From contig JAWKNQ010000007.1 in NCBI GenBank assembly GCA_041391605.1, forward strand, positions 23,195 to 87,194: a stretch of 64,000 nucleotides of DNA, in the 5' to 3' direction. Positions 5,711 to 20,385 of the stretch are shown here, one piece after another. The first letter of the stretch is position 1, and every line of letters starts with the position of its first letter. The notes below the pieces were generated by a model, which was not told where the DNA came from, searched no databases, and worked only from the letters and a program-made list of their open reading frames with translations. The DNA comes from Bacteroidia bacterium (GTDB taxonomy: Bacteria > Bacteroidota > Bacteroidia > NS11-12g > UBA955). A program made the translations under genes and the position numbers.

Positions 5711-7672
5711 ATGAACAAAAAATTACTTTTATCTGCTTTTTAATGCATTTTTTGGCATTTTCACAAAGCAAAGACGCATCTAGATTTGGGCAAACTGTTA
5801 TCGGGGGAGCTCAGAAGATCAACGCAAATCAAACTGCCTCAAAGATCCAAGCACCTTGGACTCTATGTTGAATGCAGGATCAAAATCAGATACGAAAATT
5901 CTTCCAATTCAAAAGAGGAATAATCAACTACAACTTTATCAAAGTAGGTAGTACTTATTACGATTTACAGACAAATGCCAGTATGGTTGAACGTATTCAC
6001 TTACACGACGATGGTAAAATTTCTTTGGCTTGGACAACCTCCACAATTGCTGCATACCAACGTGGCACAGGCTACAATCATTATGATTTAAGCAATTGGC
6101 TTACTGTAATGACCCAACACAAGACTTGAATCGGCTCGTTCCGTTTAGGTTGGCCCTCAATTAGGTTAACAACGGAAAAGAATGGGTTATGGGTCACTCT
6201 GCTGCTAATGGAGGTTTTGTAATGTCAACCAATGCAGTATTGAGTACTTTTACTTGGACAGGAAAGGATCTGCAATTCTTACAGAATCAGGACGTGGTAA
6301 TTTGGGGTCGTGTAATGAATTCTGGTGATATTTTCCATTGTGTAGCTAGTTATTCCTGACTCATCAAGTGCTGGCGGTAAGGCTCAAAGGTAATGGTGTT
6401 TATGCCAATGACATACAGTCGTTCAATGGATGGTGGTGTGAATTGGGATATTGAACATATTTTACTTCCTGGTTATGACAGTGCTAGAATTACTTCTGGG
6501 TGGCGGCGACCAATATGCAATTGATGTTCGCGATTCCTATTGTTGCTATTGTAACAGGCGGATTATTAAGAGATGTTGCAGTATGGAAATCTACTGACAA
6601 TGGTTCTACCTTTACAAAAATGATTTGTGACTCGTTATGTATGCTCCATATGATGCTAAAAAATTAATGCTTGATACGCCTTATACATCTGATGGTTCTG
6701 TTGATGTATTAATTGACAATAACTTGGTAAAATCCACATTTTGGGGAGTTGGAAGAGTGTTAGACACCGATACAACAGATGAATCTTATAGTTTCTATCC
6801 CTGGAACTTCATTGTTAGGTTACTGGAATGAAAATATTATGATGCCACAATTTATTGCTGGTGGTCTTCAATTTGATCGTGATGGAAGTGGTACAATTAC
6901 AATCTCAGCTGGTAACACTGCTACTCTTGAAAATGGTCTTGTCCCACAAGCACTTAAAAACAACGGTATTTCGTCAGTAGCGCGTTTAGGTAATACTTCA
7001 TTACTCCATATGCCTTCTGCTGGTATCGATGCAAATGGAAATATTTTCGTAACCTTCTCTTATCCATTAGAACAAGATTTAGATCCAAACAATGTTAACT
7101 TGAGAGATATTATGATTGTTCACTCTACAGACGGAGGTAACACATGGGCAGATCCACAAGACATCACTCAAATCAGAGGTTTTTGAAGAAAGAATTTGCT
7201 TGTATCGCGAAAAGTAAATGATTTCGTTCACGTTGTTTTTCCAACAAGATCAATTGGCTGAAACAATCTTCAAACAATAGTAATGTAGATAACAACCGCC
7301 TGCAGGTGTAAATGATATCGTTTATGCTGCTGTTCCTGTTGCTAAAATATTAGATGGTTCAATAGAGCTTTTATTGAATACAAACGTTTCAAAACTACAA
7401 TGCAATCAAAGAAGTGTTTATCGTTTCTCAAAACTACCCTAACCCATTCAGTTCTTCTTCAGAAGTTATTGTTTGGTTAGATACTGAATCAAACATTCAG
7501 CATTGATATTACAAATATTTCAGATAGGTAGTTTAACGCACTCAAAGTCAAGGGACTAAAGGTGCTGGAAATCGTTTTAAATATTAATGCGGATGGATTA
7601 ACTGCTGGAATTTACTTTTATACTGTAAAAACAGCGACTCACTCTGTAACCAAAAAGATGACCGTGAACTAA
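5711..7672 (+). pseudogene. Decayed gene for a T9SS-secreted BNR/sialidase-like repeat protein (multiple frameshifts and stops)
   Basis: Signal-peptide start MNKKLLLSAF then stop at 5711. Fragments 5872-6129, 6637-6831 and 6779-7186 sit in different frames. BNR motif STDGGNTWADP is present. An intact T9SS CTD reading (GIYFYTVKTATHSVTKKMTVN*) ends at 7672. Confidence 0.5.
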
Positions 7673-8070: not shown

Positions 8071-8410
8071 TGCCTATTGAATTTATCCTTCTTCAAATAA
8101 AAACCAATGACTTTATATTAATTATATTAAATAAAAGGCATAAATAATCACTGAAAACAATAAGTTCTTTCTAAATCGGAGTTCTGGGTTTAAAGCATTA
8201 AATCACCCTTTCCAAACTTTAATATCCTTGTTCTTTTTTTAGTACTTTTCCTCGAATACATCTGCAACATCACCCAATCCACCGGTAAATCCCCTATGAT
8301 TACTATTGTGTTTACTCAAACGTGATGACATATCATCGCAAGTATGACCAATTTAATAGCGGTCTTTGAGCTTAGAATATAATATGTAAAACGTACACAT
8401 ATGAAATAGA

Positions 8411-8436
8411 AAAAGCCGCAAATATTTGCGGCTTTC
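8411..8436. terminator. Bidirectional stem-loop terminator
   Basis: AAAA-GCCGCAAAT-a-ATTTGCGGC-TTT. Confidence 0.5.
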
Positions 8437-8484
8437 TAGTGGGAGCTACTGGGTTCGAACCAGTGACCCTCTGCTTGTAAGGCA
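8437..8484. repeat. attL-type direct repeat: 48-bp copy of the tRNA-Val 3' end
   Basis: tagtgggagctactgggttcgaaccagtgaccctctgcttgtaaggca is identical to 16891-16938. Confidence 0.85.
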
Positions 8485-8601
8485 TAATACCAACATTCTA
8501 TCTAGTATCACATTACTAGCACAAATATAAGTATTTCAATGCTTTAACCTATTGTTTTAGCACTCTGTTTGTTTAACGTTAGTTGTTAATTTATCAACAC
8601 T

Positions 8602-8624
8602 GTATGCAAATCGTATGCAAATCG
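8602..8624 (+). promoter_or_regulatory. Tandem 11-mer GTATGCAAATC x2 (candidate integrase arm-type site / int operator)
   Basis: Exact tandem repeat directly upstream of, and overlapping, the int start; related copy at 16825-16846. Confidence 0.4.
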
Positions 8625-8638
8625 CTTATATTCGTGTT

Positions 8639-9892
8639 ATGAAAAACGAAGTATTCATTTCTATTTACCTAGATACCAGAAGAAGCAAGTCGAATGGTAA
8701 GTATCCAGTAAAACTGAGGGTATTTACTACCAATCCCAGAGTTCAGAAGCTTTACCCGACTAAATATGAGTATACCGACAAAGAATTTGATAGCATCTGG
8801 AATACTTTAAAGCCCAGAAAAGAATTTAAACATCACAGAAAACAATTACTGGATATTGAAGACAACGCAACCGAGATTTCTAAAGAAATGGAATACTTTG
8901 ATTTCACTTTATTTGAAAAAAAGTACTTTAGGAATAACGGTGAAGGCAGCGATGTATTTTATCATTACGGTAAAACCATTGAGTCTCTTATAAAATATAA
9001 ACAACTAGGGACCGCCAGTAATTATAGATTAAGTGAGAAATCTATAAAAAAATATTTGAAGGATAAGACTGGTAAGGAAATAGACAAGTTGCATTTTAAA
9101 GAAATTACAATTAATTGGTTAAAAGATTATGAATCTTATATGGTTGATGCTAACAATAGAAGTTATACTACCGTATCCATGTATCTAAGAGCCTTGCGAA
9201 CGCTATTTAATAATGCAATCAAAGATAAAGACATTGAATCAACTATTTACCCATTTGGAGACGGTAAGTATGTAATACCAGCATCGCAAAACATAAAAAA
9301 AGCATTAAGCAAAGCCGATTTGAAATCTTTGTTTCATTCAAAACCATTGACTCCAGAGCAAGAAAAGGCAAAGGACTTTTGGTTTTTTAGCTATGCTTGT
9401 AATGGTATGAATATTAAAGATATTGCTTTATTGAAATGGGGCAATATAAAAGGCGAAACGATTGAGTTCTACAGGTCCAAAACTAAAAACACTAGCAAAT
9501 CGAAATTAAAGCCTGTTCAAATAATTCTGAATGACTTTACAAAACAAACCATTGAAAAATACGGAAGTTCCAACAAAGAAAGGGACCAATTGATATTTCC
9601 ATTTATTATGAATGGGAAATCTGATTTAGAAAATTTCAATAAGATAAAGAACTTTACTAAGTTTATCAATCAAAACTTAAAGAAATTAGCCATTTCAAAT
9701 GGTATTACTGGAGATATTTCAACTTACTGGGCGAGACATAGCTTTGCAACTAATGCTGTCCGTTTGGGGGCTTCTATGGAGTTCGTTAGTGAAGCATTGA
9801 GCCATAATAATCTCAAAACAACGCAGAGTTATTTTGCAGGTTTTGAAGAAGATAGTAAGATTGAAATAATGGAAAAATTAATGGCATTTTAA
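8639..9892 (+). CDS. int: Site-specific tyrosine integrase (Bacteroidota Arm-DNA-binding type)
   Basis: YLDTRRSKSNGKYPVKLRV arm-binding N-terminus; C-terminal ARHSFAT (HxxR) and TTQSYF catalytic Tyr. ATG at 8639 preferred over 8615, which lies inside the repeat. Confidence 0.9.
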   Translation: MKNEVFISIYLDTRRSKSNGKYPVKLRVFTTNPRVQKLYPTKYEYTDKEFDSIWNTLKPRKEFKHHRKQLLDIEDNATEISKEMEYFDFTLFEKKYFRNNGEGSDVFYHYGKTIESLIKYKQLGTASNYRLSEKSIKKYLKDKTGKEIDKLHFKEITINWLKDYESYMVDANNRSYTTVSMYLRALRTLFNNAIKDKDIESTIYPFGDGKYVIPASQNIKKALSKADLKSLFHSKPLTPEQEKAKDFWFFSYACNGMNIKDIALLKWGNIKGETIEFYRSKTKNTSKSKLKPVQIILNDFTKQTIEKYGSSNKERDQLIFPFIMNGKSDLENFNKIKNFTKFINQNLKKLAISNGITGDISTYWARHSFATNAVRLGASMEFVSEALSHNNLKTTQSYFAGFEEDSKIEIMEKLMAF

Positions 9893-9899
9893 TAATAAA

Positions 9900-10076
9900 A
9901 TGAATAGACATTCTACATTCTTTATTGATAAAATTAAAAGATTTGATATTTGCAATACCAGTATTACTGAGTTAATCGGTGGCAAATTAGAGTGGGCTTT
10001 TGAAACTAAACCAACCATGGGAGAACACAATTATTTGGTTGTAGCGGTTGTCTTAAAACAAATTTGCATGTATTAA
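9900..10076 (+). CDS. Small hypothetical protein (58 aa) on the element
   Basis: Uninterrupted ATG-to-TAA ORF not in the supplied track (<60 aa); no homology recognised. Confidence 0.2.
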   Translation: MNRHSTFFIDKIKRFDICNTSITELIGGKLEWAFETKPTMGEHNYLVVAVVLKQICMY

Positions 10077-10085
10077 ATGTAGTGA

Positions 10086-10463
10086 ATGAAAAGTTCAAAG
10101 AATTTCCATTTTGGTTGCGATATGCATAGACGAATGGTTAAGAATGATTGGTCCGACAAATCTAAAATGGGAGATTATCCCTTATTACTTGCCAATAAAC
10201 TTTCTTATACGTACCAACATGTAATCAATAACATTAACAAAGATGACTGGTACAGCGATATTTATAATTACATTGACTACACTGTAGAAAGTTTTGGTTC
10301 CTTTCCTTATCAGTATGGAGGACCATTGTACATAGATTACTATTATAAAAGTCTAATAAATCTAATTAGTAATATCGCAGGGATTGAAGCAAACAAAAAG
10401 AAGCTTCTAATTTCTTTAATAAATCAGTTCGCAAAACCAAGTATAAAAAATGATAAAGGCTAA
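10086..10463 (+). CDS. Hypothetical protein (element cargo)
   Basis: 125-aa ORF, Tyr-rich; no recognisable domain. Confidence 0.4.
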   Translation: MKSSKNFHFGCDMHRRMVKNDWSDKSKMGDYPLLLANKLSYTYQHVINNINKDDWYSDIYNYIDYTVESFGSFPYQYGGPLYIDYYYKSLINLISNIAGIEANKKKLLISLINQFAKPSIKNDKG

Positions 10464-11038
10464 AAACATCAGAAGTTTATAAAAAATGGGTTGATTCATT
10501 TCCTTTTGGATTACCTTTTTAGAACCCTATAAAAACAACTCTTTTGATATGTTTTTGATGTTTAAAAATACAGATGAATTTAATCCGTATAGTTGGCAAA
10601 ACCAAAATTCACATTTTAAGCAATCTGGAGTTGATAGAAATTCTAGTTCAAAAACAAAAGACATCTTAATTGCAGCTAATCGAGAGCTTAAAGCAAATAC
10701 TTATTCTATTACTGAAGCAAATAGAAATGCAAATGTTGATACTAAATGAAGACCATAGAATTGAACAAGAAAGTTTATTAATTGAGTTCACAAGAGGCGA
10801 GAAAAAATATATAAGCATATTAAGAAGATGGCTAAAGAAAGAGAATACTTTGACAAATTAAGACCTTATTTGAATGAAGATTCAACTCCTTTAACCCCCA
10901 ACAAAAAGGGACTTATTAAGAACGGCTTTAAAAGAAAAATGTTTTTTTAATCTTTCTAAAGTCAAAGATTTAAATGAAAACTCTACAGAACTTTTAATTC
11001 AACTTCTTTTTGACAACAAAATTCCTTATCAAATCGCA

Positions 11039-11278
11039 ATGTTTGACTATTTAGATTTTCTACCTTATTTATTGAAAGAACAATTCTATGGGAATAAATC
11101 GAAAATGATATTTTGGCTAACAAAGGTATTGAACAATGGGAAAAATGAACGTCAAATTAAGGGAAATATCAATATTTTAAATGAGAAAACAAACGAAAAA
11201 TCGGATAAATATACATCTCATTTGCATACCGAAAAAGTAATTAAAGATTATCAAATATTAAAAATTGGGGGTATTTGA
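11039..11278 (+). CDS. Hypothetical small protein (element cargo)
   Basis: 79-aa ORF; the upstream 10549-10895 region has overlapping short ORFs and in-frame stops, so it may be decayed. Confidence 0.3.
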   Translation: MFDYLDFLPYLLKEQFYGNKSKMIFWLTKVLNNGKNERQIKGNINILNEKTNEKSDKYTSHLHTEKVIKDYQILKIGGI

Positions 11279-11333
11279 CTTAATTTCCCCCAAAATAACC
11301 CTCTCATAATTGCAGTATTAAATAAATACTGTA

Positions 11334-11624
11334 ATGGAATTAACATTTGAACAACTCCCTTTAGCGATTAGGGACCTCACCAGCAAAGTAGAAAGAATTG
11401 AATCTTTACTACTCAATCGTTCGACCTCAGACAATGATACAGACCAGTTAATTTGTATCAAAGAAACTGCAAAGTATCTCAAATTATCGGTCCCAACCAT
11501 TTACCGAAAAGTTAGTAGAGGTGAAATACCTTATTGCAAGAAGTCCAACCGTTTATACTTTTCTAAATCTGAACTAATTGATTGGATTAAAACTAGCAGT
11601 TTCCCAGTTCTAAACAAAAAATAA
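11334..11624 (+). CDS. Helix-turn-helix DNA-binding protein, excisionase/Xis-like
   Basis: KETAKYLKLSVPTIYRKVSRGEIPYCK is a HTH_17-like motif typical of Bacteroidota mobile-element Xis/regulators. Confidence 0.65.
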   Translation: MELTFEQLPLAIRDLTSKVERIESLLLNRSTSDNDTDQLICIKETAKYLKLSVPTIYRKVSRGEIPYCKKSNRLYFSKSELIDWIKTSSFPVLNKK

Positions 11625-11628
11625 GATT

Positions 11629-12693
11629 ATGAAATTAAGTAATTTTGATAAGAACCAATTCAATAAGTTAGGACAACAAAGGACCGATAACAAGACAAAG
11701 CCTAAAAACACAAGCGACAAAACACTTAAAGGTAAGGGGTCCAAAATCAATCCAGAAAAGACAGGAAACTGGGCAAAGCGAAAGACAATATCATCAGTGT
11801 TGCTGCTCAATCTAATCACTGTAGCTGAAAAGAAAAGCAGAAATCCAAAAATAATTAAATCCTATAGGAATGCTTACTATTGTCTTAATGAGGTTGAAAC
11901 AAGCGGCAATAAGCTATTTGGCAAGTACTGTAAAAATAGGCATTGTTTGAATTGTGCTGCTATTAGAAAAGCGGAATTAATTAACAAATATTTACCTATT
12001 GTAAAGCAATGGAAGGACCCTCAATTGGTTACTCTTACAATTAAAGCTATACCCGCCAAAAACCTAAAGAAGTTTATGAAAGAAGGTATGGTGAAAGCAA
12101 TAAAAAGAATAATAGCAAGATACCGTAAAAGAAGCTACAGAAATGATTCAAAACCAATGATAGGAATAAGAGCATTAGAATGTAATTTTAACCCACAAAA
12201 ACGAACATACAATCCTCATTACCATTTGATAGTTTCAGACTTAGAAACCGCAAAAAATCTAGTAAAAGATTGGATGGCACTTTGGACCAACAAACACACT
12301 GGAATATATTCTCAAAACATAAGACCAGTAAAAGACACAACCAAAGATTTAATTGAGGTCATTAAATACGGTACTAAGATTTTTACAGACCCAACAATGA
12401 AAAAAGGCAGAAACAAAAAAACACCTCACTTTGTATACGTTTCTGCAATTGATAATATCCTAAATGCTATGATTGGTATTAGGCAATTTGAACACTTTGG
12501 GTTTAAAATCCCGAAACAAAACAAAGTAAAGTTTGACCCTGAAATAGCTGAAGAATTAAAACAATGGCAATTTGATTTAAGAAAAGCAGATTGGACTGAT
12601 ATCGAATCTGATGACAACTCTCTTTCTGGTCATTCATTAGACCCTAATACACAAAACACGTTAGAAAATAATATAAATCTGGATTTAGAATAG
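11629..12693 (+). CDS. rep: Rolling-circle replication initiator, pC194/pUB110 (Rep_1, HUH) family
   Basis: Zn-finger CKNRHCLNC; motif 2 NPHYHLIV (HUH); motif 3 VIKYGTK catalytic Tyr. Confidence 0.7.
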   Translation: MKLSNFDKNQFNKLGQQRTDNKTKPKNTSDKTLKGKGSKINPEKTGNWAKRKTISSVLLLNLITVAEKKSRNPKIIKSYRNAYYCLNEVETSGNKLFGKYCKNRHCLNCAAIRKAELINKYLPIVKQWKDPQLVTLTIKAIPAKNLKKFMKEGMVKAIKRIIARYRKRSYRNDSKPMIGIRALECNFNPQKRTYNPHYHLIVSDLETAKNLVKDWMALWTNKHTGIYSQNIRPVKDTTKDLIEVIKYGTKIFTDPTMKKGRNKKTPHFVYVSAIDNILNAMIGIRQFEHFGFKIPKQNKVKFDPEIAEELKQWQFDLRKADWTDIESDDNSLSGHSLDPNTQNTLENNINLDLE

Positions 12694-12700
12694 TTTTTCA

Positions 12701-12723
12701 GCGGAGAACAAATGATTCTCCGC
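12701..12723. other. Perfect 8-bp stem-loop GCGGAGAA-caaatga-TTCTCCGC between rep and the RM gene
   Basis: GC-rich hairpin with no 3' U-tract; candidate RCR origin hairpin or processing/attenuation structure. Confidence 0.3.
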
Positions 12724-12760
12724 CAAAATTCCTATGTTTGTGCAAAGCAAACAAAACTAA

Positions 12761-15700
12761 ATGACCGTATCTGAATACATTGAAAACCTTAATAAACGCT
12801 ATCAATTAGGCAACGCCACAGAACATACTTTCCGCGGCGACTTACAATCACTAATTGAAAGTCTGGTCCCAGAAGTAGCAGCAACCAACGAACCAAAACG
12901 AATCCAATGCGGCGCCCCCGATTATGTTATAACTAGGAAAGATATACCTATAGGATTCATTGAAGCCAAAGACGTTGGGACCGACCTAAGTAGCAAATCA
13001 CTAAAAGAACAATTCGACCGATACAAGGCATCTTTAAACAATCTTATCATTACAGATTATTTAGACTTTCATTTATATATAGACGGCGCTTTTGTCACCA
13101 GTATACGAATTGGAGAAATCTATAAAGGTGCCATCATAGCCAAACCTGAAAATTTAGAAACATTTGAAAATTTAATCAAAGATTTTTGTTTGCATATTGG
13201 GCAAACGATTAAAAGCAGTAAGCGTTTAGCTGAAATGATGGCAGCAAAAGCAAGAATGTTGTCTGATGTTATAGAAAAATCGCTAAACAGCGATGAAGAC
13301 AAAGATGCCAATAGCTCACTTAAAGACCAGATGACAGCGTTTAAGCAAATACTTATACATGACATCAAACCAAAGGAATTTGCAGACGTTTACGCTCAAA
13401 CTATTGCTTATGGTATGTTTGCGGCAAGATTACACGACCCTACATTAGAAACATTTACCAGACAAGAAGCGGCTGAACTAATACCAAAATCAAATCCGTT
13501 TCTTAGAAAATTGTTTGGTTATATCGCTGGACCCGACATCGACGACCGTATTAAATGGATAGTTGCGAGTTTAGCCGATGTTTTCAGAGCTTCAGATGTA
13601 GCAGCCATCTTAAAGAACTTTGGAAAATCAACACAAACCCAAGACCCTATTATTCATTTTTATGAAACCTTTCTAAGCGAATACGACCCCAAATTAAGAA
13701 AAGCCAGAGGGGTTTGGTATACGCCAGAGCCAGTAGTTAATTTTATAGTTCGTGCAGTAGATGACATATTAAAGACTGAATTTGATTTGCCACAGGGTTT
13801 AGCAGACACAAGTAAAACAAAAATTAAAGTAAATGTCCAAGGCAAGAAAGTAGAACAAGAAGTTCACCGAGTACAGATATTGGACCCAGCAACGGGAACG
13901 GGCACTTTCTTAGCAGAAGTGATAAAACAAATTCATGCGAAATTTGAAGGTCAAAAAGGCATTTGGTCCAACTATGTAGAAAATCAATTGTTACCACGTT
14001 TAAATGGTTTTGAGTTACTGATGGCATCTTATGCAATGGCTCATTTAAAATTAGATTTACTATTGACTGAAACAGGCTATAAACCAACTCGGAACCAACG
14101 ATTCAAAGTATATCTTACAAACAGCTTAGAAGAACACCATCCCGAGACAGGTACTTTATTTGCCAATTGGTTAAGCAGCGAAGCCAATGAAGCGAATCAA
14201 ATCAAAAGAGATACTCCTGTAATGTGTGTAATTGGGAATCCTCCATATGCTGTAAGTAGCAATAATAAAAGTATTGATACGGATGGACATAAAACTTGGA
14301 TTGGACGTTTAATTGATGATTACAAAAAAAACCTAAATGAAAGAAAAATTAACTTAGATGACGATTATATAAAATTCATTCGCTACGGTCAGTATTTTAT
14401 AGACAAGAATGGGAGTGGTGTTTTGGCTTATATATCAAATAATAGTTTCATAGATGGAATTACTCACAGGCAAATGAGAAAAAGTCTATTAGAATGTTTT
14501 AACAAGATTTACATTCTGGATTTACATGGGAGTTCTAAAAAGAATGAAGTTTCAATTAGTGGCGGTAAAGACGAAAATGTTTTTGATATTCAGCAGGGTG
14601 TGAGTATTAATATATTTATTAAATATAACCAGAAAAAACAAAGTAAATCAACCGAAGTGCTACATTCAGATATATTTGGTTTGCGAAAGGAAAAGTATTT
14701 AACTCTTGCCTCAAATTCTTTAAAAACAATCAAATGGGATAAATTAACATTGAAGCCGCCATATCATTTTTTTGTACCAAAGGATTACAATTCAATTAAC
14801 GAATATAACAAAGGTTTTCAGTTTACAGACTTATTTGTAAATTATAATTCTGGTATCCAAACTAAGAATGATAGTTTATCAATACAATTTCATCAAAATC
14901 AAATTGAAGCTGTGGTAAATGATTTCAAAACTGAAGGTGTAAATGAATTGAAAATCAAATATAATTTAAAAGATACAAGTGGATGGACAGTATTAAATGC
15001 TAAAAATGACTTGTTGAAAAATGAAGGCAATTTTTATAAAATATATTATAGACCCTTTGATTTGAGATATATTTATATGACAAATAAGTCAGGCGGATTT
15101 GTAGGCAGACCCAGAATGGATACTATGAGGCACTTTTTGAATGGAGATAATTATGGATTGATAACCGTGAGGCAACAAAGTACATTTGATTTTCAACATA
15201 TACTTATCTCAAATACAATTATGGAAAGTGGTGCAATTTCCCTTCAAACTAAAGAATGGGGCTATATTTTCCCCTTATACTTATACCCTGTTTCAAATAG
15301 CCAATTAAAAATAAATCAAACTGAAAAAAGGATTCCGAATTTGAACATAGAAATTATAAAATTAATTTCTGATAAATTAGGGTTTATATTTTCAAATGAA
15401 AAGGAAATTAGCAAAAATTCTTTTGCCCCTATTGACATATTAGATTACATCTATGCGGTATTATATTCACCAAAGTATCGAGAGAAATACAAAGAATATT
15501 TAAAAATAGATTTCCCCCGTGTACCTTATCCAAAGGACCAGAAAACATTTTGGGCATTGGTTAAACTAGGCAGTGAGTTAAGGCAAATACATTTATTAGA
15601 TAGCCCTGTCATTGAAAAGTATATTACCCAATACCCTATCGACGGCGATAACATTGTTGTAAAACCGATTTTCAAAGATGGCAAGGTATATATAAACGAA

Positions 15701-15901
15701 ACGCAGTATTTTGAAGCGGTCCCTGAGATAGCATGGAATTTTTACATAGGTGGTTACCAACCTGCCCAGAAATGGCTAAAGGACCGCAAAGACAGGGTTT
15801 TAGATTTTGATGACATTCTGCACTATCAGAAGATAATTGTAGCTTTGTTTGAAACAGATAGGATTATGAAGAAAATAAATCAGTTAATTTATAAAGATTA
15901 A
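12761..15901 (+). CDS. Type IIG (MmeI-like) restriction-modification enzyme: N-terminal PD-ExK nuclease, gamma-class N6-adenine methyltransferase, C-terminal TRD
   Basis: GAPDYVITRKD...IGFIEAKD (PD...EAK); LDPATGTGTFL (motif I); VIGNPPYA (motif IV); 1046 aa with no helicase or separate S subunit. Confidence 0.75.
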   Translation: MTVSEYIENLNKRYQLGNATEHTFRGDLQSLIESLVPEVAATNEPKRIQCGAPDYVITRKDIPIGFIEAKDVGTDLSSKSLKEQFDRYKASLNNLIITDYLDFHLYIDGAFVTSIRIGEIYKGAIIAKPENLETFENLIKDFCLHIGQTIKSSKRLAEMMAAKARMLSDVIEKSLNSDEDKDANSSLKDQMTAFKQILIHDIKPKEFADVYAQTIAYGMFAARLHDPTLETFTRQEAAELIPKSNPFLRKLFGYIAGPDIDDRIKWIVASLADVFRASDVAAILKNFGKSTQTQDPIIHFYETFLSEYDPKLRKARGVWYTPEPVVNFIVRAVDDILKTEFDLPQGLADTSKTKIKVNVQGKKVEQEVHRVQILDPATGTGTFLAEVIKQIHAKFEGQKGIWSNYVENQLLPRLNGFELLMASYAMAHLKLDLLLTETGYKPTRNQRFKVYLTNSLEEHHPETGTLFANWLSSEANEANQIKRDTPVMCVIGNPPYAVSSNNKSIDTDGHKTWIGRLIDDYKKNLNERKINLDDDYIKFIRYGQYFIDKNGSGVLAYISNNSFIDGITHRQMRKSLLECFNKIYILDLHGSSKKNEVSISGGKDENVFDIQQGVSINIFIKYNQKKQSKSTEVLHSDIFGLRKEKYLTLASNSLKTIKWDKLTLKPPYHFFVPKDYNSINEYNKGFQFTDLFVNYNSGIQTKNDSLSIQFHQNQIEAVVNDFKTEGVNELKIKYNLKDTSGWTVLNAKNDLLKNEGNFYKIYYRPFDLRYIYMTNKSGGFVGRPRMDTMRHFLNGDNYGLITVRQQSTFDFQHILISNTIMESGAISLQTKEWGYIFPLYLYPVSNSQLKINQTEKRIPNLNIEIIKLISDKLGFIFSNEKEISKNSFAPIDILDYIYAVLYSPKYREKYKEYLKIDFPRVPYPKDQKTFWALVKLGSELRQIHLLDSPVIEKYITQYPIDGDNIVVKPIFKDGKVYINETQYFEAVPEIAWNFYIGGYQPAQKWLKDRKDRVLDFDDILHYQKIIVALFETDRIMKKINQLIYKD

Positions 15902-16638
15902 ATTAAAGTTTGTTGATATACTTTTGTGAAGTATTTACTATAGTCGATTACTGGATATGGCAAATTTGGCTTTCCAAGCTTGTGTTTAATCAAATAAAAA
16001 AATAAATCTATCCTTACACTAGCAACAAATCCTTTATCCATATAATCTTCTATTAATACTCCTATTAATTTATATCTCGTTAATTTCCTTTTGTGAAAAT
16101 TAGTATTCCAGTCTGGTACAAACCAAAGTCCACTGCCACTCATTCCTGTTAATGAACTTAAATAGGTTTCTTTTACACCTCCAAATTTAACGCCCTTTTT
16201 CGAAATCCTTATTAAAAGATGAGACTCGTAATTAAACCCCCATTTATTATAATATTTTGGGTGAAAAGGAAAAGTCAATAAACTTTGTGGCTTGACAAGC
16301 TTTTTCTTTAATCCCTTTTTTAAGTTTGTTAAGGGAAAACCAGAAATAATATAGTCAGGTTTATTCATTAATTGATGATTTACCCACGTTGCAGATGGGA
16401 TTAATGCCTTCTGTTTGTTAATTAATAAAAACTGCTTAATTTCATTTGACAACTTCAATACAGAAACATCAATCTTTCCATTATTAGATGAAGAATCTAA
16501 GTAAGTGGTGCATAATGTTCCTTTTAGGTTAATATTCGTAAATCCAGTTAAATTTAACACCAACCCCTTTTTAAAGTTTTCTATTGAAAGTAAGTGACCT
16601 GCGGTCAACAAATAATAATCACCATAGATATAAAACAA
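15898..16638 (-). CDS. Trypsin-fold (S1-like) serine protease, cytoplasmic; 5' end disrupted or non-canonical (open frame to ~16795; ATG at 16751 is out of frame)
   Basis: LLTAGHLL (His), DVSVLKL (Asp) and GMSGSGLW (Ser) with chymotrypsin-like spacing. Its stop overlaps the RM stop by 4 bp (convergent). The track start is TTG. Confidence 0.55.
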   Translation of the reverse strand: MFYIYGDYYLLTAGHLLSIENFKKGLVLNLTGFTNINLKGTLCTTYLDSSSNNGKIDVSVLKLSNEIKQFLLINKQKALIPSATWVNHQLMNKPDYIISGFPLTNLKKGLKKKLVKPQSLLTFPFHPKYYNKWGFNYESHLLIRISKKGVKFGGVKETYLSSLTGMSGSGLWFVPDWNTNFHKRKLTRYKLIGVLIEDYMDKGFVASVRIDLFFYLIKHKLGKPNLPYPVIDYSKYFTKVYQQTLI

Positions 16639-16824
16639 TAAAGAGCACCCTAAAGGCTCTAATTTACTATCATCATTTTTTATAAATATGACGTATGTAA
16701 AATCAATTGCATCCTTAATTATATTATGAAACTTGTTTCTATTAATTTCATACGTTTTTTGGTAATAATCCTTTAAATTGTTTAATCTTTTATTTTACTG
16801 CTTTTTACTTTCATTATTAAAATT

Positions 16825-16846
16825 ATATGCAAATTGTATGCAAATG
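16825..16846 (+). promoter_or_regulatory. Tandem TATGCAAAT-type repeats near attR (candidate arm-type integrase site)
   Basis: aTATGCAAATtGTATGCAAATg in the same orientation as the copy at 8602-8624. Confidence 0.4.
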
Positions 16847-16886
16847 AAAAAAGGGTTTCAATCTGAATCGACCGAAACCCTTTTGT
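16847..16886. terminator. Stem-loop terminator
   Basis: AAAAAA-GGGTTTC-(14 nt)-GAAACCC-TTTTGTT. Confidence 0.5.
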
Positions 16887-16890
16887 TATC

Positions 16891-16938
16891 TAGTGGGAGC
16901 TACTGGGTTCGAACCAGTGACCCTCTGCTTGTAAGGCA
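16891..16938. repeat. attR-type direct repeat (overlaps the tRNA-Val 3' half)
   Basis: Identical to 8437-8484. Confidence 0.85.
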
Positions 16939-16968
16939 GATGCTCTGAACCAGCTGAGCTAAGCTCCC
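16894..16968 (-). tRNA. tRNA-Val (anticodon TAC)
   Basis: 75-nt cloverleaf hand-folded: acceptor GGGAGCT/AGCTCCC, D-stem GCTC/GAGC, anticodon loop CTTACAA, T-loop TTCGAAC, discriminator A. Confidence 0.9.
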
Positions 16969-17056
16969 TTGTTTTTAAGGACTGCAAAAATAATTAATAT
17001 TCAGACTTTCCAAATAAATTTTATTTATTTTTATTTATCCTTATAATCTAATTGTG

Positions 17057-17422: not shown

Positions 17423-17439
17423 TAACCTTGTAACTTTAA

Positions 17440-18237
17440 TTGGTCTTGTATATTGTGTTCGCAAAAGTAAAACCAAATACCCGAATAATAGGTCAAAATA
17501 TTATTTATTTTAATCAAGTACCGTCCACCAATTCATATGCATTTGAATTGTTAAAACAAAAAATTGCAGTAAACGGTTCTGTAATCATTGCTGAATACCA
17601 AACTGAAGGCAAAGGGCAATCGGGTAAACTTTGGTATAGTGAAGCGTATAAAAACTTACTTTTTTCTTTGATTATCAAGCCTGTAACAAAGCATAACCTA
17701 AATCCGTTTAGTATTAATAAAGCAATCGCTATAGCTATGCAAAAGACAATACAAACACTGTTACCTAATCAAAATGTTAACATCAAATGGCCAAATGATA
17801 TTTTAATAAAAAGACAAAAAGTTTGTGGAATTCTTACAGAAAATAATTTTACGGGTCAACAGTTAAACGCTTGTGTTATAGGAATTGGCTTAAATGTGAA
17901 TCAAATCATGAAAAAAAACGATCAATTTCTCTCGTGTTCCCTTTGTATGTTCTCAGATAATGAATTTGATCGCCAAGTGATCTTAAAGCAAATATTGGAA
18001 TCTATTGAATATGAAGTAGACAAACTTTTTACTGGGAAAGAGCATGAAGTTCAATCTCAATACAATGAATTACTACTTGGATATAAACAAGTTCAAGGTT
18101 TTTTATTAAATTCACAACAAATTTCAGCAAAACTACAAGGCTGTGATATCAATGGTTCTCTTATTATACAACAAGGAGATGGAAGTGAAGAATCCTATCT
18201 TCATGGCACAATCAAACAACTAATTAATAATGAATAA
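17440..18237 (+). CDS. birA: Biotin--[acetyl-CoA-carboxylase] ligase
   Basis: EGKGQSGKLWYS (GRGRxGxxW-type) motif; 265 aa without HTH. Confidence 0.8.
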   Translation: MVLYIVFAKVKPNTRIIGQNIIYFNQVPSTNSYAFELLKQKIAVNGSVIIAEYQTEGKGQSGKLWYSEAYKNLLFSLIIKPVTKHNLNPFSINKAIAIAMQKTIQTLLPNQNVNIKWPNDILIKRQKVCGILTENNFTGQQLNACVIGIGLNVNQIMKKNDQFLSCSLCMFSDNEFDRQVILKQILESIEYEVDKLFTGKEHEVQSQYNELLLGYKQVQGFLLNSQQISAKLQGCDINGSLIIQQGDGSEESYLHGTIKQLINNE

Positions 18238-18940
18238 AGGTGTTATAGATATTGGAAACACAAGGATAAAATCTGCAATTTTCAATGCTCAAGGAGAAAT
18301 TACCAAGCTCGATACCTTTCAAATCGCTAAAAACGCTGTTGATTGGCTAAAATCTAATCAAGTTGATTCTATTTTTGTGAGTTCTGTATCTCAAAAACAT
18401 TCAGAACTTGAGATCGATTCAAACATCCAATTCTTAAGACCTGATAGTATTTTGCCATTTAAAAACCTTTATAAAAGTCAAGAAACTTTAGGTTTAGACC
18501 GAATTGCAGCCATGGCCGCCGCTTCTGTGCTTTATCCAAATCAAGCCGTATTGGTTTTTGATATCGGTACCTGCATGACAATCGACTTTCTTTATCCTGA
18601 CAACTCATACAAAGGTGGGAATATATCTCCAGGTATAGAAATGCGCTTAAATTCGATGCATACCATGACAGGTCGTCTACCTCTTGCGGCAAAAGATATG
18701 ACGACACCCTTAATGGGAGATAGCACACATTCTGCCTTAGCCACAGGTGCAATGCTAGGAATGAAGTATGAAATTGAAGGTTATTTAAATGAATTTTCGA
18801 AAAAGTATCCAAATTTAATTGCCATAGGATGTGGGGGTGATTTTATGTATTTTGATATCCCATCGAAATACAAGATATTTGCCGCTCCAAATTTTGTGCT
18901 ATACGGTCTATATCACTTGTTATTACTGAATGAAAAATAA
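18230..18940 (+). CDS. coaX: Type III pantothenate kinase
   Basis: MNKGVIDIGNTRIKSAIF N-terminus with an ASKHA fold pattern. Confidence 0.85.
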   Translation: MNKGVIDIGNTRIKSAIFNAQGEITKLDTFQIAKNAVDWLKSNQVDSIFVSSVSQKHSELEIDSNIQFLRPDSILPFKNLYKSQETLGLDRIAAMAAASVLYPNQAVLVFDIGTCMTIDFLYPDNSYKGGNISPGIEMRLNSMHTMTGRLPLAAKDMTTPLMGDSTHSALATGAMLGMKYEIEGYLNEFSKKYPNLIAIGCGGDFMYFDIPSKYKIFAAPNFVLYGLYHLLLLNEK

Positions 18941-20381
18941 AAATATTGCATTAATTGCCATTTGTATCGGGCTTTCAACCATATCATTTGCACAAAACAA
19001 TACAAGCTCCCCATATTCAACTAGAGGTTATGGTGAATTGGAATCATTTTCAAACGCATTCACTCGTTCTTTAGGAGGTTCAATAAATGGAATTCGAACT
19101 AACAGAAGCATTTCATTTAGTAATCCTGCATCTATCGGCGCTTTGAAGCAAGTGTCCTTAGATTTTGGATTTAGAGGTGAACAAAGCAAAATTTACAATG
19201 CCGAAATTGCTAAAACTGTTTACAATGGCAACTTTAGCTATTTTGGACTAGCCTTTCCTGTTTATAAAAAGCTAGTAGTTAAAGACACTTCAGGAGGGAA
19301 AACAGATAGCAAGCTTTATCGTGAATATAAAACAATTTGGAGCCTAGGCTTTGGCTTAACTCCCTTTAGCAATGTAAATGCATCCTATTATAAAATCCAA
19401 GACACGTCCTACGGACAAATTGGAAACTACTATTCTAAAAGCGGCGGACTGAACAGAGTTTATCTCATGAATGCCGTGAACATTACACCGAATTTGAGTG
19501 TTGGATTAAATACATCGTATTTATTTGGTCAAGTTAAATCTAATGAATCGTACTTCTTGTTTGATTCTGGTATAAGTAGGGCGAGTTTTGTTGAGAACAA
19601 CACACAACTTAGTGGTTTTCGTTTTGATTTCGGAATCCAAGGTGAACGCAACAGGGATACAATAATAAGAAAGGATTCAGTTTTTGAAAACGGAAGGATG
19701 ATTTTAAAAACTTTTAGATACCCAGTTCGTTTTGTTTATGGTGCAACATTGAGCAATAACTCGGTTATTAAATACAATGAGTTTAGACAGATTTTAAACA
19801 GAAGTAATTATTACACTAACGCTGCCATTGACACGATATTAAGCGAGAATAACATAAATGGTAATAGCAATTTACCGATGAGCTTTTCTGCAGGTTTTAG
19901 CGTCACATTCAATAAATATTGGATGATTGCAGCTGATTATAAGTCAGACTTATGGTCGAATATGGATAGAAGCATATTTAAGGATTCTTTTACGAATAGC
20001 TCTCAAATTAGCATTGGTATTGCGTACAAGCCTGATATCGATATTTCCTACTCTGAAGTGATGACTTCTGGTAAAAGAAAAGCCAGAATGGAATATAGAC
20101 TCGGTGCTCGTATGTTAAATACAGGTTATCTTTTCAAAGATAATATAGGAAATATTAACCCTTTGAAGGAATATGGCATAAGTTTTGGAATAGGTATACC
20201 GAAAACCAGAGTTACATACGATGGAAGAACCAAGGTCTTACTCAAAAACATGTTCAATATTACGGGCGAGTACATCCGAAGAGGGAACACACAAAATGGC
20301 ATGATTGCCGAAAATATTGTCAGACTTACCATTGGTTTTACACTATCTGACATCTGGTTTAGGCAAAGAAAATTTTATTAA
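18930..20381 (+). CDS. Putative outer-membrane beta-barrel protein
   Basis: Signal peptide; alternating beta-strand pattern; C-terminal aromatic residue (RKFY); conserved position after coaX. Confidence 0.5.
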   Translation: MKNKNIALIAICIGLSTISFAQNNTSSPYSTRGYGELESFSNAFTRSLGGSINGIRTNRSISFSNPASIGALKQVSLDFGFRGEQSKIYNAEIAKTVYNGNFSYFGLAFPVYKKLVVKDTSGGKTDSKLYREYKTIWSLGFGLTPFSNVNASYYKIQDTSYGQIGNYYSKSGGLNRVYLMNAVNITPNLSVGLNTSYLFGQVKSNESYFLFDSGISRASFVENNTQLSGFRFDFGIQGERNRDTIIRKDSVFENGRMILKTFRYPVRFVYGATLSNNSVIKYNEFRQILNRSNYYTNAAIDTILSENNINGNSNLPMSFSAGFSVTFNKYWMIAADYKSDLWSNMDRSIFKDSFTNSSQISIGIAYKPDIDISYSEVMTSGKRKARMEYRLGARMLNTGYLFKDNIGNINPLKEYGISFGIGIPKTRVTYDGRTKVLLKNMFNITGEYIRRGNTQNGMIAENIVRLTIGFTLSDIWFRQRKFY

Positions 20382-20385
20382 AAAA

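Follow-up and report, generated by a model that had tools for sequence, protein, structure and literature searches.

The window, the whole 64-kb stretch of DNA analyzed here, carries, in the 3' end of tRNA-Val(TAC), an integrated element that measures 8,454 bp between corresponding points of its two repeat copies. We place a probability of roughly 0.75 on the reading that it is a small integrated element from a family found across Bacteroidota and built on the backbone Int - X - HTH(Xis-like) - Rep_1, for which excision and rolling-circle replication are proposed. The first-pass annotation had described integration into the tRNA-Val 3' end by an element combining int, a rolling-circle Rep and a Type IIG enzyme, and this description held up in domain searches, in 19 delimited relatives and in the attP circle of one relative. 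Four features are additions to that annotation: the degraded backbone gene X, the arm-type repeats at the two ends, the candidate nick site and the lack of a canonical start in the peptidase ORF. The features are listed below.

8410-8437, minus strand: host terminator hairpin (12-bp stem plus T run)
8435-8484: attL core, left copy of the 50-nt repeat (100% match to 16889-16938)
8602-8622, plus strand: left arm-type repeats, GTATGCAAAT twice with 11-bp spacing, just 5' of int (repeat search)
8639-9892, plus strand: int, tyrosine recombinase of the Bacteroidota SAM_5 type, likely start 8639 (Pfam, PHROG)
10086-11278, plus strand: gene X pseudogene (tblastn of P0121, P0122 and P0124)
11334-11624, plus strand: HTH_17/excisionase-family protein (Pfam HTH_17, 4e-14; TIGR01764)
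11629-12693, plus strand: rep, intact Rep_1 (pC194/pUB110-type) HUH rolling-circle initiator (PF01446)
11659-11685, plus strand: candidate double-strand origin, with TTCA^ATAAGTTAG as nick box together with GACAA-caa-AGGACC (corresponds in position to the family consensus)
12761-15901, plus strand: intact Type IIG single-chain restriction-modification enzyme (PADLOC, Pfam, PDB sequence matches)
15898-16794, minus strand: chymotrypsin-fold serine peptidase homologue (predicted structure, Foldseek, conserved residues)
16825-16845, plus strand: right arm-type repeats, ATATGCAAAT then GTATGCAAAT, 11-bp spacing (repeat search)
16849-16884, minus strand: element-borne terminator hairpin right behind the rebuilt tRNA 3' end (15-bp stem plus T run)
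16889-16938: attR core, right copy of the 50-nt repeat (direct-repeat match)
16893-16968, minus strand: intact tRNA-Val(TAC), the integration target (ARAGORN; Rfam 71.8 bits)

The integration site

Sequence comparison within the window reveals a direct repeat that is 100% identical between 8435-8484 and 16889-16938. A perfect repeat of 48 bp had been reported earlier; it is real and perfect, and its length is 50 nt. Its 34-nt core occurs at only 2 sites in the window, against a chance expectation of 0. ARAGORN finds a single tRNA in the window, tRNA-Val(TAC), and Rfam matches the same gene. The repeat overlaps the end of this gene and therefore comprises the last 46 nt of the tRNA and 4 further nt, so that its earlier identification as the 3' part of an intact tRNA-Val(TAC) agrees with both searches.

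The attL core is the original 3' end of tRNA-Val, displaced as 46 nt plus 4 nt, and the hairpin at 8410-8437 is the original host terminator, which now lies behind the displaced fragment. The functional 3' end is supplied by the attR core. That is to say, the last 46 nt of the tRNA were replaced by the element's identical copy and the element's own terminator was added, and relatives likewise place their own hairpin behind the rebuilt tRNA. Housekeeping genes flank the site, with holA on the left and rsfS, a biotin ligase gene and coaX on the right. Two metagenome scans found neither an empty tRNA-Val site nor a circular form of this exact element.

Recombination genes and Rep

The int reading frame is open from 8615 (ORF 8615-9892). 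Its product contains Phage_int_SAM_5 (7e-15) and Phage_integrase (4e-12) domains, matches the PHROG for integrase and has all of the family-conserved residues K289, R374, H397 and Y406. The GTATGCAAAT arm repeats are candidate integrase arm-binding sites; the same tandem motif occupies the same position in relatives L002, L041, L043, L068, L084 and L086, and other lineages have different tandem 11-bp repeats at that place. Relatives have tandem 11-bp arm repeats at each of their two ends; the way in which arm repeats, hairpin and core are arranged is conserved, and the repeat sequence varies by lineage. The product of the HTH gene scores 34.3 bits against TIGR01764 excise (cut-off 28.8). Only 4 bp separate its stop codon from the rep start codon, and in relatives it always lies directly upstream of rep; the HTH_17 protein may act as a recombination directionality factor, as an accessory protein of Rep, or as both. 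Between Int and HTH lies a slot that is also occupied in relatives, where X is intact and encodes an all-helical protein of 270-480 aa and unknown function. Here tblastn recovers a frameshifted remnant whose N-terminal and C-terminal parts lie in different frames, interrupted by 6 or more in-frame stops.

Rep matches Rep_1 (PF01446) at 40.5 bits (cut-off 33.2). The TLT motif, NPH-x-H (H197, H199), E243, K246 and Y247 do not vary among 20 family members, nor does an N-terminal Cys4 cluster (C85/C101/C106/C109). These domain and motif matches bear out the first-pass calls of an integrase at 8639-9892, an Xis-like HTH at 11334-11624 and a pC194-family HUH Rep at 11629-12693. The Rep alignment shows no inactivating lesions, with catalytic motifs intact, and so leaves the element reading standing.

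Inspection of the 5' end of rep across the family reveals a conserved cis site, N^ATACATTAG...GGGACA, with the consensus T-N-N^ATACATTAG(C)A(C)AA-N3-GGGACA. Exact copies of ATACATTAG occur in 69 of 80 loci (86%), and flanking positions are at background conservation. It lies 5' of the first rep ATG in 21 of 76 loci, 3 of these 21 wholly outside the ORF. Many family copies of the box read CTTG^ATA, a form known from the nick sites of pC194 and phiX174. Some 10 independent loci are solo copies, which consist of Rep and cargo without Int, X or HTH; their left junction is the nick site, and the adjoining host DNA often ends in CTTG or TTCA. Because these truncated copies begin to match full elements exactly at this position, the conserved ATACATTAG site is likely the Rep nick site. 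The positional homologue in the window element, with its candidate nick position at 11663, has two changes in the 9-mer and two in the GGGACA box relative to consensus, while the closest relative, L080, keeps the consensus 9-mer. A search of the element for a single-strand origin identified none, nor is there a hairpin at the nick site.

Cargo genes

Both cargo genes had been named beforehand, and the first, the Type IIG gene at 12761-15901, is confirmed by a PADLOC REase_MTase_IIG match of 1160 bits and by Pfam matches to Type_ISP_C (7e-77, the specificity domain), N6_Mtase, Eco57I and MmeI_Mtase. Its translation contains a PD...EAK nuclease motif at residues 53-70, DPATGTG and NPPY. As in Type IIG/IIL enzymes of the MmeI family, one polypeptide of about 1,000 aa joins an N-terminal PD-ExK nuclease, a gamma-class N6-adenine methyltransferase with NPPY and a C-terminal specificity domain. 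PDB sequence matches are 7lo5_A, LlaBIII and LlaGI; unlike the Type ISP enzymes LlaGI and LlaBIII, the cargo enzyme has no helicase-like ATPase, and the C-terminal domain is common to both. The deposition title of 7lo5_A is site-specific adenine DNA-methyltransferase. The gene is 85% identical to that of L080, versus 59% between the Reps of the two elements.

The fold of the convergent trypsin-like protease is supported by a structure model with pLDDT 90 and by Foldseek hits in the PDB (E about 1e-7), and its His, Asp and Ser are invariant. The frame has 298 open codons, yet the first ATG/GTG/TTG comes only at 16638. A start there would remove the first helix and two strands, and the first 52 conserved residues are left without a canonical start codon.

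Relatives and a circular form

Species-representative genomes yield 171 relatives, essentially all in Bacteroidota, with the recurrent order Int - X - HTH - Rep - variable cargo - tRNA(-). The 19 delimited elements span 5.6-14 kb and eight different tRNA types, each with a tRNA 3'-end repeat of 14-47 nt located 100-200 bp upstream of int. The placement of int distal to the intact tRNA, previously regarded as unusual, is the layout of 19/19 of them.

For a relative whose Rep is 44% identical, six sequencing runs each gave the same circle of 7,604 bp, the contigs being exact rotations of one another with k-1 terminal overlaps. This circle is 66-73% identical in DNA to the integrated elements L041 and L023. 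Its rep-int spacer lacks a tRNA gene; read towards int, it contains arm repeats and a hairpin, then a tRNA-Asn 3' fragment of 46 nt and, some 150 nt further on, another arm repeat. This arrangement is that of an attP site. A closed assembly circle is proof of a circular molecule, not of Rep replicating that circle.

Proposed cycle and comparison with known systems

In the proposed cycle, the tyrosine integrase would recombine the two 50-nt cores, probably guided by the GTATGCAAAT arm repeats on both sides and assisted by the HTH_17 protein. Excision would release an 8.45-kb circle with attP between the cargo end and int, and would restore tRNA-Val followed by the host terminator. Rep would nick the circle just 5' of the ATA(C/A)(A/G)TTAG box at its own gene start and prime rolling-circle replication, which would maintain or amplify the excised form and yield single-stranded or concatemeric DNA that a helper, a conjugative element or phage, might export. 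Since no transfer function is encoded by the element itself, how its DNA would be exported is conjecture.

The pairing of int with a rolling-circle Rep has precedents in actinomycete AICEs (pSAM2) and in many streptococcal IMEs. AICEs pair int and xis with rep, replicate by rolling circle after excision and transfer themselves as double-stranded DNA via an FtsK-like Tra protein. PMC2440964 describes them as about 10-17 kb, integrated in tRNA genes and highly conserved in structural organization, and small size and tRNA-gene integration are shared with the present element. Unlike AICEs, it has no FtsK-like Tra gene, its Rep is a Rep_1, and its hosts are Bacteroidota rather than Actinobacteria. 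Streptococcal IMEs with Rep-type relaxases (Rep_trans/MobT, Rep_2, PHA00330) likewise combine a tyrosine integrase with an HUH/rolling-circle-type initiator, lack a type IV secretion system, are small and use tRNA or other specific targets (PMC5704250). In contrast to these IMEs, with other Rep families and often a TcpA coupling protein, the present element has Rep_1, no coupling protein and a host of a different phylum; Rep_1 is cited in PMC5704250 solely for free plasmids mobilized by ICEBs1.

The Rep_1 domain and the HUH and Glu/Tyr motifs are shared with pC194/pUB110-type plasmids and with pBFP35, which are free and have no integrase or att site, unlike the element. The nick-box consensus, situated just 5' of or at the rep start, resembles the pC194-type CTTG^ATA. 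The pBFP35 Rep is only 27% identical, and pBFP35 lacks a ATACATTAG box. NBU-type mobilizable Bacteroides elements share tRNA 3'-end integration, tyrosine integrases, arm-type sites and HTH_17-type excision proteins; they encode a Mob relaxase and a primase and contain an oriT, and have no rolling-circle Rep.

Alternative readings

A less probable reading is that the element is an integrative mobilizable element whose Rep is mainly a relaxase, with the ATACATTAG site as oriT and replication as a by-product of transfer; after excision, a co-resident Bacteroidota conjugative element would export the Rep-bound single strand. ICEBs1 mobilizes Rep_1 plasmids with their Rep acting as relaxase, and the relaxases of most streptococcal IMEs are related to rolling-circle initiators (PMC5704250). 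Domain searches detect neither a MOB relaxase nor a coupling protein in the element, and the nearest free plasmids with a related Rep are mobilizable Bacteroides plasmids. However, the one inspected, pBFP35, encodes a separate MOBV relaxase besides Rep, so Rep_1 in Bacteroides is not obviously the relaxase. Conjugation genes are absent beside every family member examined, and all known cases of Rep as relaxase involve Firmicutes TcpA-type coupling proteins (PMC5704250).

Similarly doubtful is that the window copy is what remains of a former element, no longer mobile and retained solely for its restriction-modification gene, in which int, HTH and rep have not yet degraded. The X pseudogene, the diverged nick box and the start-less peptidase gene are consistent with decay, and no second copy or circle is on record, the Rep cluster having one member on one contig. 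Against this, the two cores have stayed identical even though selection does not act on the left one. The left and right arm repeats are both intact, and int, the HTH gene and rep run to full length and lack none of the conserved residues; X may be dispensable.

Considerably less likely is a phage satellite of the marine VEIME type, in which rolling-circle concatemers would be packaged in helper-phage capsids and the restriction enzyme would serve phage interference. Marine virion-encapsidated integrative elements are of tRNA type, lack capsid genes and are found as concatemers; they occur in Flavobacteria, some with plasmid replication genes (PMC9618062), and the mostly defensive cargo of the family would fit. 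Yet a Rep relative occurs on only 1 of 2.9 million IMG/VR contigs, without the Int/HTH context, 50,697 phage records give no match, PHROGs match the integrase and HTH protein only, packaging or capsid-redirecting genes are absent, and metal-efflux cargo is not a satellite trait.

It is equally improbable that Rep and cargo form in effect an IS91-like rolling-circle transposon, with Rep rather than Int as the main mobility enzyme: the solo loci with their nick-site junctions, the Cys4 cluster and a weak IS91 transposase match (E 0.004) point that way, but the model score is 16 bits against a cut-off of 125, the window element is bounded by tRNA-derived repeats rather than nick-site junctions, no right-end (ter) sequence is defined, and solo copy L045 keeps a normal attR end, so that it, at least, is a left-truncated integrated element and not a transposition product.

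State of this copy and the family

We retain the reading of an integrated element with proposed excision and rolling-circle replication. In the window copy, int, HTH and rep are intact and the cores are identical. The X pseudogene, the mutated putative nick box and the start-less peptidase gene make present mobility uncertain; given the first two, this copy may excise yet replicate or transfer poorly. Across the family, cargo is modular: in other members it consists of RM systems of Type I or Type II, a Thoeris ThsB gene or, in three members, metal-efflux genes, and defense genes dominate. The family is widespread in Bacteroidota and apparently undescribed so far.

Boundaries of the element and its tRNA-Val target

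The minus-strand tRNA-Val(TAC) gene (Rfam 71.8 bits) is the sole tRNA gene that ARAGORN finds in the 64-kb window, and its 3' 46 nt plus 4 further nt form a perfect 50-nt direct repeat. Because it duplicates a tRNA 3' end and brackets the unit between its copies, this repeat places that unit among tRNA-targeting integrative elements. The first-pass annotation had given the repeat as 48 bp; its perfection and its origin in the tRNA-Val 3' end hold, whereas its length is 50 nt, with the left edge two bases further out. A 34-nt core of the repeat has no further occurrence in the 64-kb window, where 0 chance matches are expected.

Features of the window element
8437-8410, tRNA strand: host terminator hairpin, strong, directly 3' of the left repeat copy
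8435-8484: left copy of the 50-nt repeat (attL core)
8602-8622: left arm repeats, a tandem pair of the 10-mer GTATGCAAAT at 11-bp spacing, directly before int
8639-9892: int, ORF open from 8615; Phage_int_SAM_5 and Phage_integrase domains
11334-11624: HTH gene; HTH_17, NCBIfam excisionase-domain 34.3 bits (cut-off 28.8)
11629-12693: rep; Pfam Rep_1 (PF01446) 40.5 bits (cut-off 33.2)
11663: homologue of the box conserved near the rep start, TTCA directly followed by ATAAGTTAGGACAAcaaAGGACC; 2 changes in the 9-mer, 2 in the GGGACA box
12761-15901: Type IIG gene; PADLOC REase_MTase_IIG 1160.8 bits (full-length model, matching the N-terminal half and beyond)
15898-16794: peptidase gene, a convergent ORF open for 298 codons
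16825-16845: right arm repeats, a GTATGCAAAT pair whose first copy has one mismatch, followed by the element hairpin and then the core
16884-16849, tRNA strand: element hairpin, different from the host hairpin, 3' of the right copy that completes the functional tRNA
16889-16938: right copy of the 50-nt repeat (attR core)
16893-16968, minus strand: tRNA-Val(TAC)

Removal of 8485-16938 in silico leaves the tRNA intact with the host terminator hairpin behind it, which is the arrangement predicted for the site before insertion. The flanks outside the repeats are housekeeping DNA, with rsfS, a biotin-protein ligase gene and coaX on the right and holA on the left, and the GC content of the element shows no contrast with its surroundings in the window. 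Searches returned neither attB nor attP of the window element itself. For attB, the empty tRNA-Val site, exact and relaxed (tRNA plus promoter) patterns gave 0 matches in the metagenome collection; this negative carries little weight because the relaxed pattern should match the relative L086, whose contig is evidently absent from that collection.

Inspection of the delimited relatives reveals the same arm-repeat, hairpin and core geometry in every case, with a repeat sequence that varies by lineage: GTATGCAAAT in L002, L041, L043, L068, L084 and L086, ATGTTTTAA in L021, L027 and L031, GTGTCGGAA in L023, and TTGTCAAC in tRNA-Ser integrators. The tandem repeats are best read as putative arm-type integrase sites. 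A third exact GTATGCAAAT copy lies on the minus strand at 11220-11229, within the 3' end of the X pseudogene and ~100 bp ahead of the HTH gene; this copy may be due to chance (p ~0.04 by our own estimate) because it is unconserved in relatives.

Just left of the element, the plus strand of 5743-7186 carries a series of short same-strand ORFs (42, 85, 56, 43, 55, 64 and 135 aa) in an otherwise gene-poor stretch of slightly higher GC (0.39), which resembles another gene in decay. The nearby 3.1-kb Type IIG gene is intact, and this speaks against a general assembly error.

Genes of the window element

Domain searches and a model of the peptidase bear out the genes first annotated between the repeats, namely int, an Xis-like HTH gene, rep, a Type IIG gene and a trypsin-fold protease gene; together with a pseudogene of the backbone gene X, they constitute the whole gene set of the element. 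The integrase keeps K289, R374, H397 and Y406, which are conserved across 59 family integrases, and its start lies 155 bp from the core, so that a tyrosine recombinase with its catalytic residues adjoins one att site. The HTH gene ends with a stop codon 4 bp ahead of the rep start codon. Assignment of the HTH protein to the MADS defence system was rejected at 42 bits against a cut-off of 80. Alignment of Rep with 19 relatives shows motif I (TLT), the HUH motif (NPH-x-H, with H197 and H199; NPHYH in the window Rep), E243, K246 and Y247 to be invariant, as is a four-cysteine cluster. Since the catalytic motifs are all kept, Rep carries no inactivating lesion of the sort that would have counted against the first-pass annotation.

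The Type IIG enzyme combines nuclease, methyltransferase and specificity functions in a single chain, with PD...EAK, DPATGTG and NPPY motifs in its translation and Pfam domains N6_Mtase, Eco57I, MmeI_Mtase and Type_ISP_C. Its sequence matches in the PDB are 7lo5_A (an adenine-specific DNA methyltransferase), LlaBIII and LlaGI. The peptidase has ~205 distant relatives. A model built with 39 of them (pLDDT 90) gives chymotrypsin-fold matches (Foldseek PDB E ~1e-7), and the triad H67, D109 and S219 is invariant across 40 sequences; the predicted double beta-barrel with its His-Asp-Ser triad is that of a PA clan serine peptidase. The first ATG, GTG or TTG of the ORF is codon 53, and a start there would drop one helix and two strands, so the gene either uses a non-canonical start or is disabled.

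A family of related elements in Bacteroidota

A word-indexed protein search detects 161 relatives of Rep, many on very long contigs, and 171 stretches in Bacteroidota assemblies (one genome per species) encode one. Among the 79 loci fetched, the recurrent order is Int(+) - X - HTH(+) - Rep(+) - variable genes - tRNA(-). Nineteen loci carry a tRNA 3'-end repeat of 14-47 nt located 100-200 bp upstream of int, which delimits elements of 5.6-14 kb in genes for tRNA-Val, Ser, Asp, Asn, Pro, Met, Lys and Arg. Because the attL-side repeat lies just upstream of int in all 19, placement of int far from the intact tRNA is the rule of the family and not the oddity that it had first seemed. The initial interpretation as a whole, of a tRNA-Val-integrated element that pairs an integrase with a rolling-circle Rep and carries Type IIG cargo, is supported. 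A literature search, whose incomplete coverage makes this an absence of evidence only, returned no description of the Int - X - HTH - Rep_1 combination in Bacteroidota; the family is widespread in this phylum and apparently undescribed.

The minimal member, L002 (5,580 bp), is likewise inserted at this tRNA-Val site, and its 46-nt core is identical. Some 210 bp to the left of its attL, an extra right-end module (L002 5769-5848; arm repeat, hairpin and core start) is 92% identical to window 16821-16900 and suggests a remnant of an earlier element in that tRNA-Val site. L086 presents the same tRNA-Val - rsfS - birA - coaX neighbourhood with another member inserted (Rep 47% identical), in a host distant from that of the window (RsfS 69%, BirA 51% and CoaX 51% identical). 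Upstream of tRNA-Val, GGACTGCAAAAATAAT is common to window 16969-17000 and L086 2857-2900; on the tRNA strand it reads ATTATTTTTGCAGTCC and contains a -7 promoter element of the Bacteroidota TAnnTTTG type.

The 2.1-Mb contig of L070 contains a duplicated 3.6-kb segment of X, HTH, Rep and downstream DNA (8697-12299 and 17436-21038; 99.94% identity, 8,739 bp apart) with different genes upstream of the two copies, which could stem from tandem accretion or from two elements having exchanged modules. One MAG (JABDAO01) is the source of both L026, delimited in tRNA-Asp, and L016, a copy with Rep and cargo upstream of a tRNA-Val(TAC) gene, so a single genome holds two different members. The Logan contig of L084 (5447-5566) stops at the final base of the 46-nt tRNA-Val core, the assembly breaking at an att repeat that exceeds k=31; contigs that terminate in an att core may offer a cheap route to further family members.

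Cargo is modular across these loci. L080, the closest relative, has a Type IIG gene after rep whose product is 85% identical to the window enzyme, the two Reps being 59% identical, and L084 has one at 67% identity. Other members carry Type I RM systems, a CfrBI-type RM system, a ThsB TIR gene, or CzcCBA-type and P-type ATPase metal-efflux genes.

Decay of gene X in the window

Between int and the HTH gene lies a 1.4-kb stretch that resembles a run of small ORFs and represents a degraded gene, X, which the first-pass annotation had missed. L080 encodes a 427-aa protein in this slot. Aligned to the window, this protein and two homologues match 10089-10484 and, in a different frame, 10478-11263, where at least six in-frame stops interrupt the sequence. 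The slot in relatives nearly always holds one intact ORF of 270-480 aa, 32 of which fall in one BLAST cluster. X matches no Pfam or PHROG family, and its all-helical model (pLDDT 84) has no informative structural match. A few remote relatives of X, P0179 and P0180, share its C-terminal two-thirds and carry this part fused to SEFIR/TIR or CHAT domains. The fusions hint, without proving it, that X may serve in sensing or defence and not in replication or transfer. The loss of X in the window is a sign of decay or dispensability.

A relative assembles as a free circle

Contigs encoding P0027, a Rep relative of 44% identity, measure 7,634 bp in four runs and 7,630 and 7,625 bp in two more, with terminal overlaps of 30, 26 and 21 nt, respectively. 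One 7,604-bp circle accounts for all six contigs as exact rotations, which indicates that members exist as closed circles abundant enough to assemble alone. The circle carries genes in the order Int - Type IIG/ISP-like enzyme - X - HTH - Rep, and ARAGORN detects no tRNA gene in it. Its 280-bp rep-int spacer runs from arm repeats through a hairpin, a 46-nt tRNA-Asn 3' fragment, ~150 nt and a further arm repeat to int, and constitutes an attP site. The DNA of the circle is 66-73% identical to the integrated tRNA-Asn elements L041 and L023. The circular state is shown by these contigs, which by themselves are no demonstration of Rep-driven replication. Terminal overlaps number 0 in 16 small whole contigs with Rep relatives, the P0027 lineage being the only one with circles.

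A conserved site near the rep start marks truncation junctions

Scanning of whole elements from 80 loci for shared k-mers revealed a box, ATACATTAG, that 69 of them have, ~60 nt inside the reading frame of rep. Alignment of the copies gives the consensus T-N-N-ATACATTAG(C)A(C)AA-N3-GGGACA, with flanks conserved at background level only. An 11-mer containing the box occurs in 48/80 loci, against 26/80 for the best coding-driven 11-mers. The box lies upstream of the first rep ATG in 21 of 76 loci and outside the ORF in 3 of these 21, and the constraint therefore acts on DNA and not on protein. Many copies read CTTG directly followed by ATAC, a sequence reminiscent of CTTG^ATA, where pC194 and phiX174 are nicked.

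Comparison with 13 loci that carry Rep and cargo and lack X and HTH (L004, L008, L024, L013, L016, L030, L044, L045, L046, L053, L054, L057 and L079) gives this position a further significance. All except L057 also lack the upstream Int, and ordinary host genes lie upstream. In these solo copies the 5' edge of the box is the exact point from which homology with full elements runs, and the adjoining host DNA often ends in CTTG or TTCA; the first rep ATG follows ~30 to >300 nt downstream of the box (~130 nt in Flavobacteriia copies). L045 and L050, for example, are ~99% identical over the first 80 nt from ATACATTAG and 89% over a 935-nt match from the box, and unrelated upstream; L004, L008 and L024 show the same pattern against L003. 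Pairwise BLAST matches between solo and full copies start at the motif coordinate in nearly every pair, whereas those between full copies extend upstream. L045 is a left-truncated integrated element, since its normal right end at tRNA-Ser is kept. With L008 and L024 counted as one event for their shared flanks, ~10 independent junctions fall at one nucleotide position, which is otherwise hard to explain, and we infer cleavage and joining at the box.

The 5' edge of the box is accordingly taken as the putative Rep nick site, also written T-N-N^ATACATTAGCACAA, with ATAAGTTAG as the window variant. As a candidate double-strand origin, the box is strongly conserved across the family and marked by the truncation junctions, with the window copy off at 2/9 positions; L080 keeps the consensus 9-mer. 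The exact pC194 nick sequence CTTGATA has 0 copies in the element and a chance-level count in the window, no hairpin forms at the window nick site (z = 0.28), and neither the 300 nt that follow rep nor the stretch ahead of the HTH gene yielded a conserved motif in a simple k-mer search. Nor did the element yield a single-strand origin candidate.

It seems to us unlikely that Rep_1 has a dual use, replicating the circle and also cutting the element, integrated or circular, at N^ATACATTAG and joining that end to T-N-N (often CTTG) genomic sites. If it did, integrase-independent Rep-plus-cargo insertions or adjacent deletions would arise, and the family would unite lambda-like site-specific integration with IS91-like rolling-circle joining, the solo copies being its footprints.

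Two sets of features bear on the state of the window copy. Identical cores, together with int, HTH and rep genes that are all intact, speak for recent activity; the X pseudogene, altered nick box and start-less peptidase gene speak for decay. The window copy is possibly a decaying family member.

Proposed mechanism and relation to known systems

We propose that recombination between the two 50-nt cores is carried out by Int, which probably binds the arm repeats and has help from the HTH_17 protein; this step would release an 8,454-bp circle and restore tRNA-Val with its host terminator. Rep would then nick the rep sense strand 5' of the ATA box, and rolling-circle replication would maintain or amplify the circle, from which single-stranded or concatemeric products could exit the cell via a helper.

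In common with integrative mobilizable elements (IMEs), the window element has its own integration and excision module and no type IV secretion system. The pairing of an integrase with a rolling-circle Rep is established in streptococcal IMEs with Rep-type relaxases, and Rep_1 plasmids are mobilisable by ICEBs1 through their own Rep (PMC5704250). No MOB relaxase is encoded among the window element genes, and by analogy Rep could act as its relaxase. Among free plasmids, Rep_1 plasmids of Bacteroides come nearest, with 27% identity; pBFP35, the only such plasmid inspected, encodes a MOBV relaxase of its own, and it lacks the ATACATTAG box.

The AICEs of actinomycetes are defined by an FtsK/SpoIIIE-like Tra protein and double-stranded DNA transfer. 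The window element differs from them in that no ORF contains an FtsK/SpoIIIE-like Tra domain. The same integrase and rolling-circle Rep pairing is established in AICEs such as pSAM2 (PMC2440964). VEIMEs, which are marine virion-borne integrative elements, offer a phage-based route (PMC9618062). The gene content, with no packaging or capsid-hijacking genes, does not fit a phage satellite of the PICI or VEIME type; PHROGs matches in the element are confined to Int and the HTH protein, and Rep relatives number 1 in IMG/VR and 0 in a phage collection. An IS91-family transposon was dismissed at 16.3 bits against the 125-bit cut-off of NCBIfam transpos_IS91, with no IS91-type Y2 transposase. The concept thus has precedents; what is new is the backbone, the att architecture, a putative nick site at which truncation junctions fall, and the existence of a free circle.

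Significance of the family

The nick box, the truncation junctions and the 7.6-kb circle are testable handles on rolling-circle initiators in integrative elements, and cultured carriers exist. They include Aquimarina mytili KCTC 23302 (L003), Eudoraea chungangensis KCTC 42048 (L009), several Flavobacterium strains, one being Flavobacterium longum (L049), Aequorivita soesokkakensis (L051) and Wenyingzhuangia marina DSM 100572 (L057). The 5.6-kb minimal backbone, with defined att sites and an origin, could serve as an integrative vector for Bacteroidota. For the phylum itself, the family represents a compact, phylum-wide vehicle of 5.6-14 kb that carries metal-resistance and defence genes, the latter ranging over Type I, Type II and Type IIG restriction-modification systems and a Thoeris ThsB gene, into tRNA genes.
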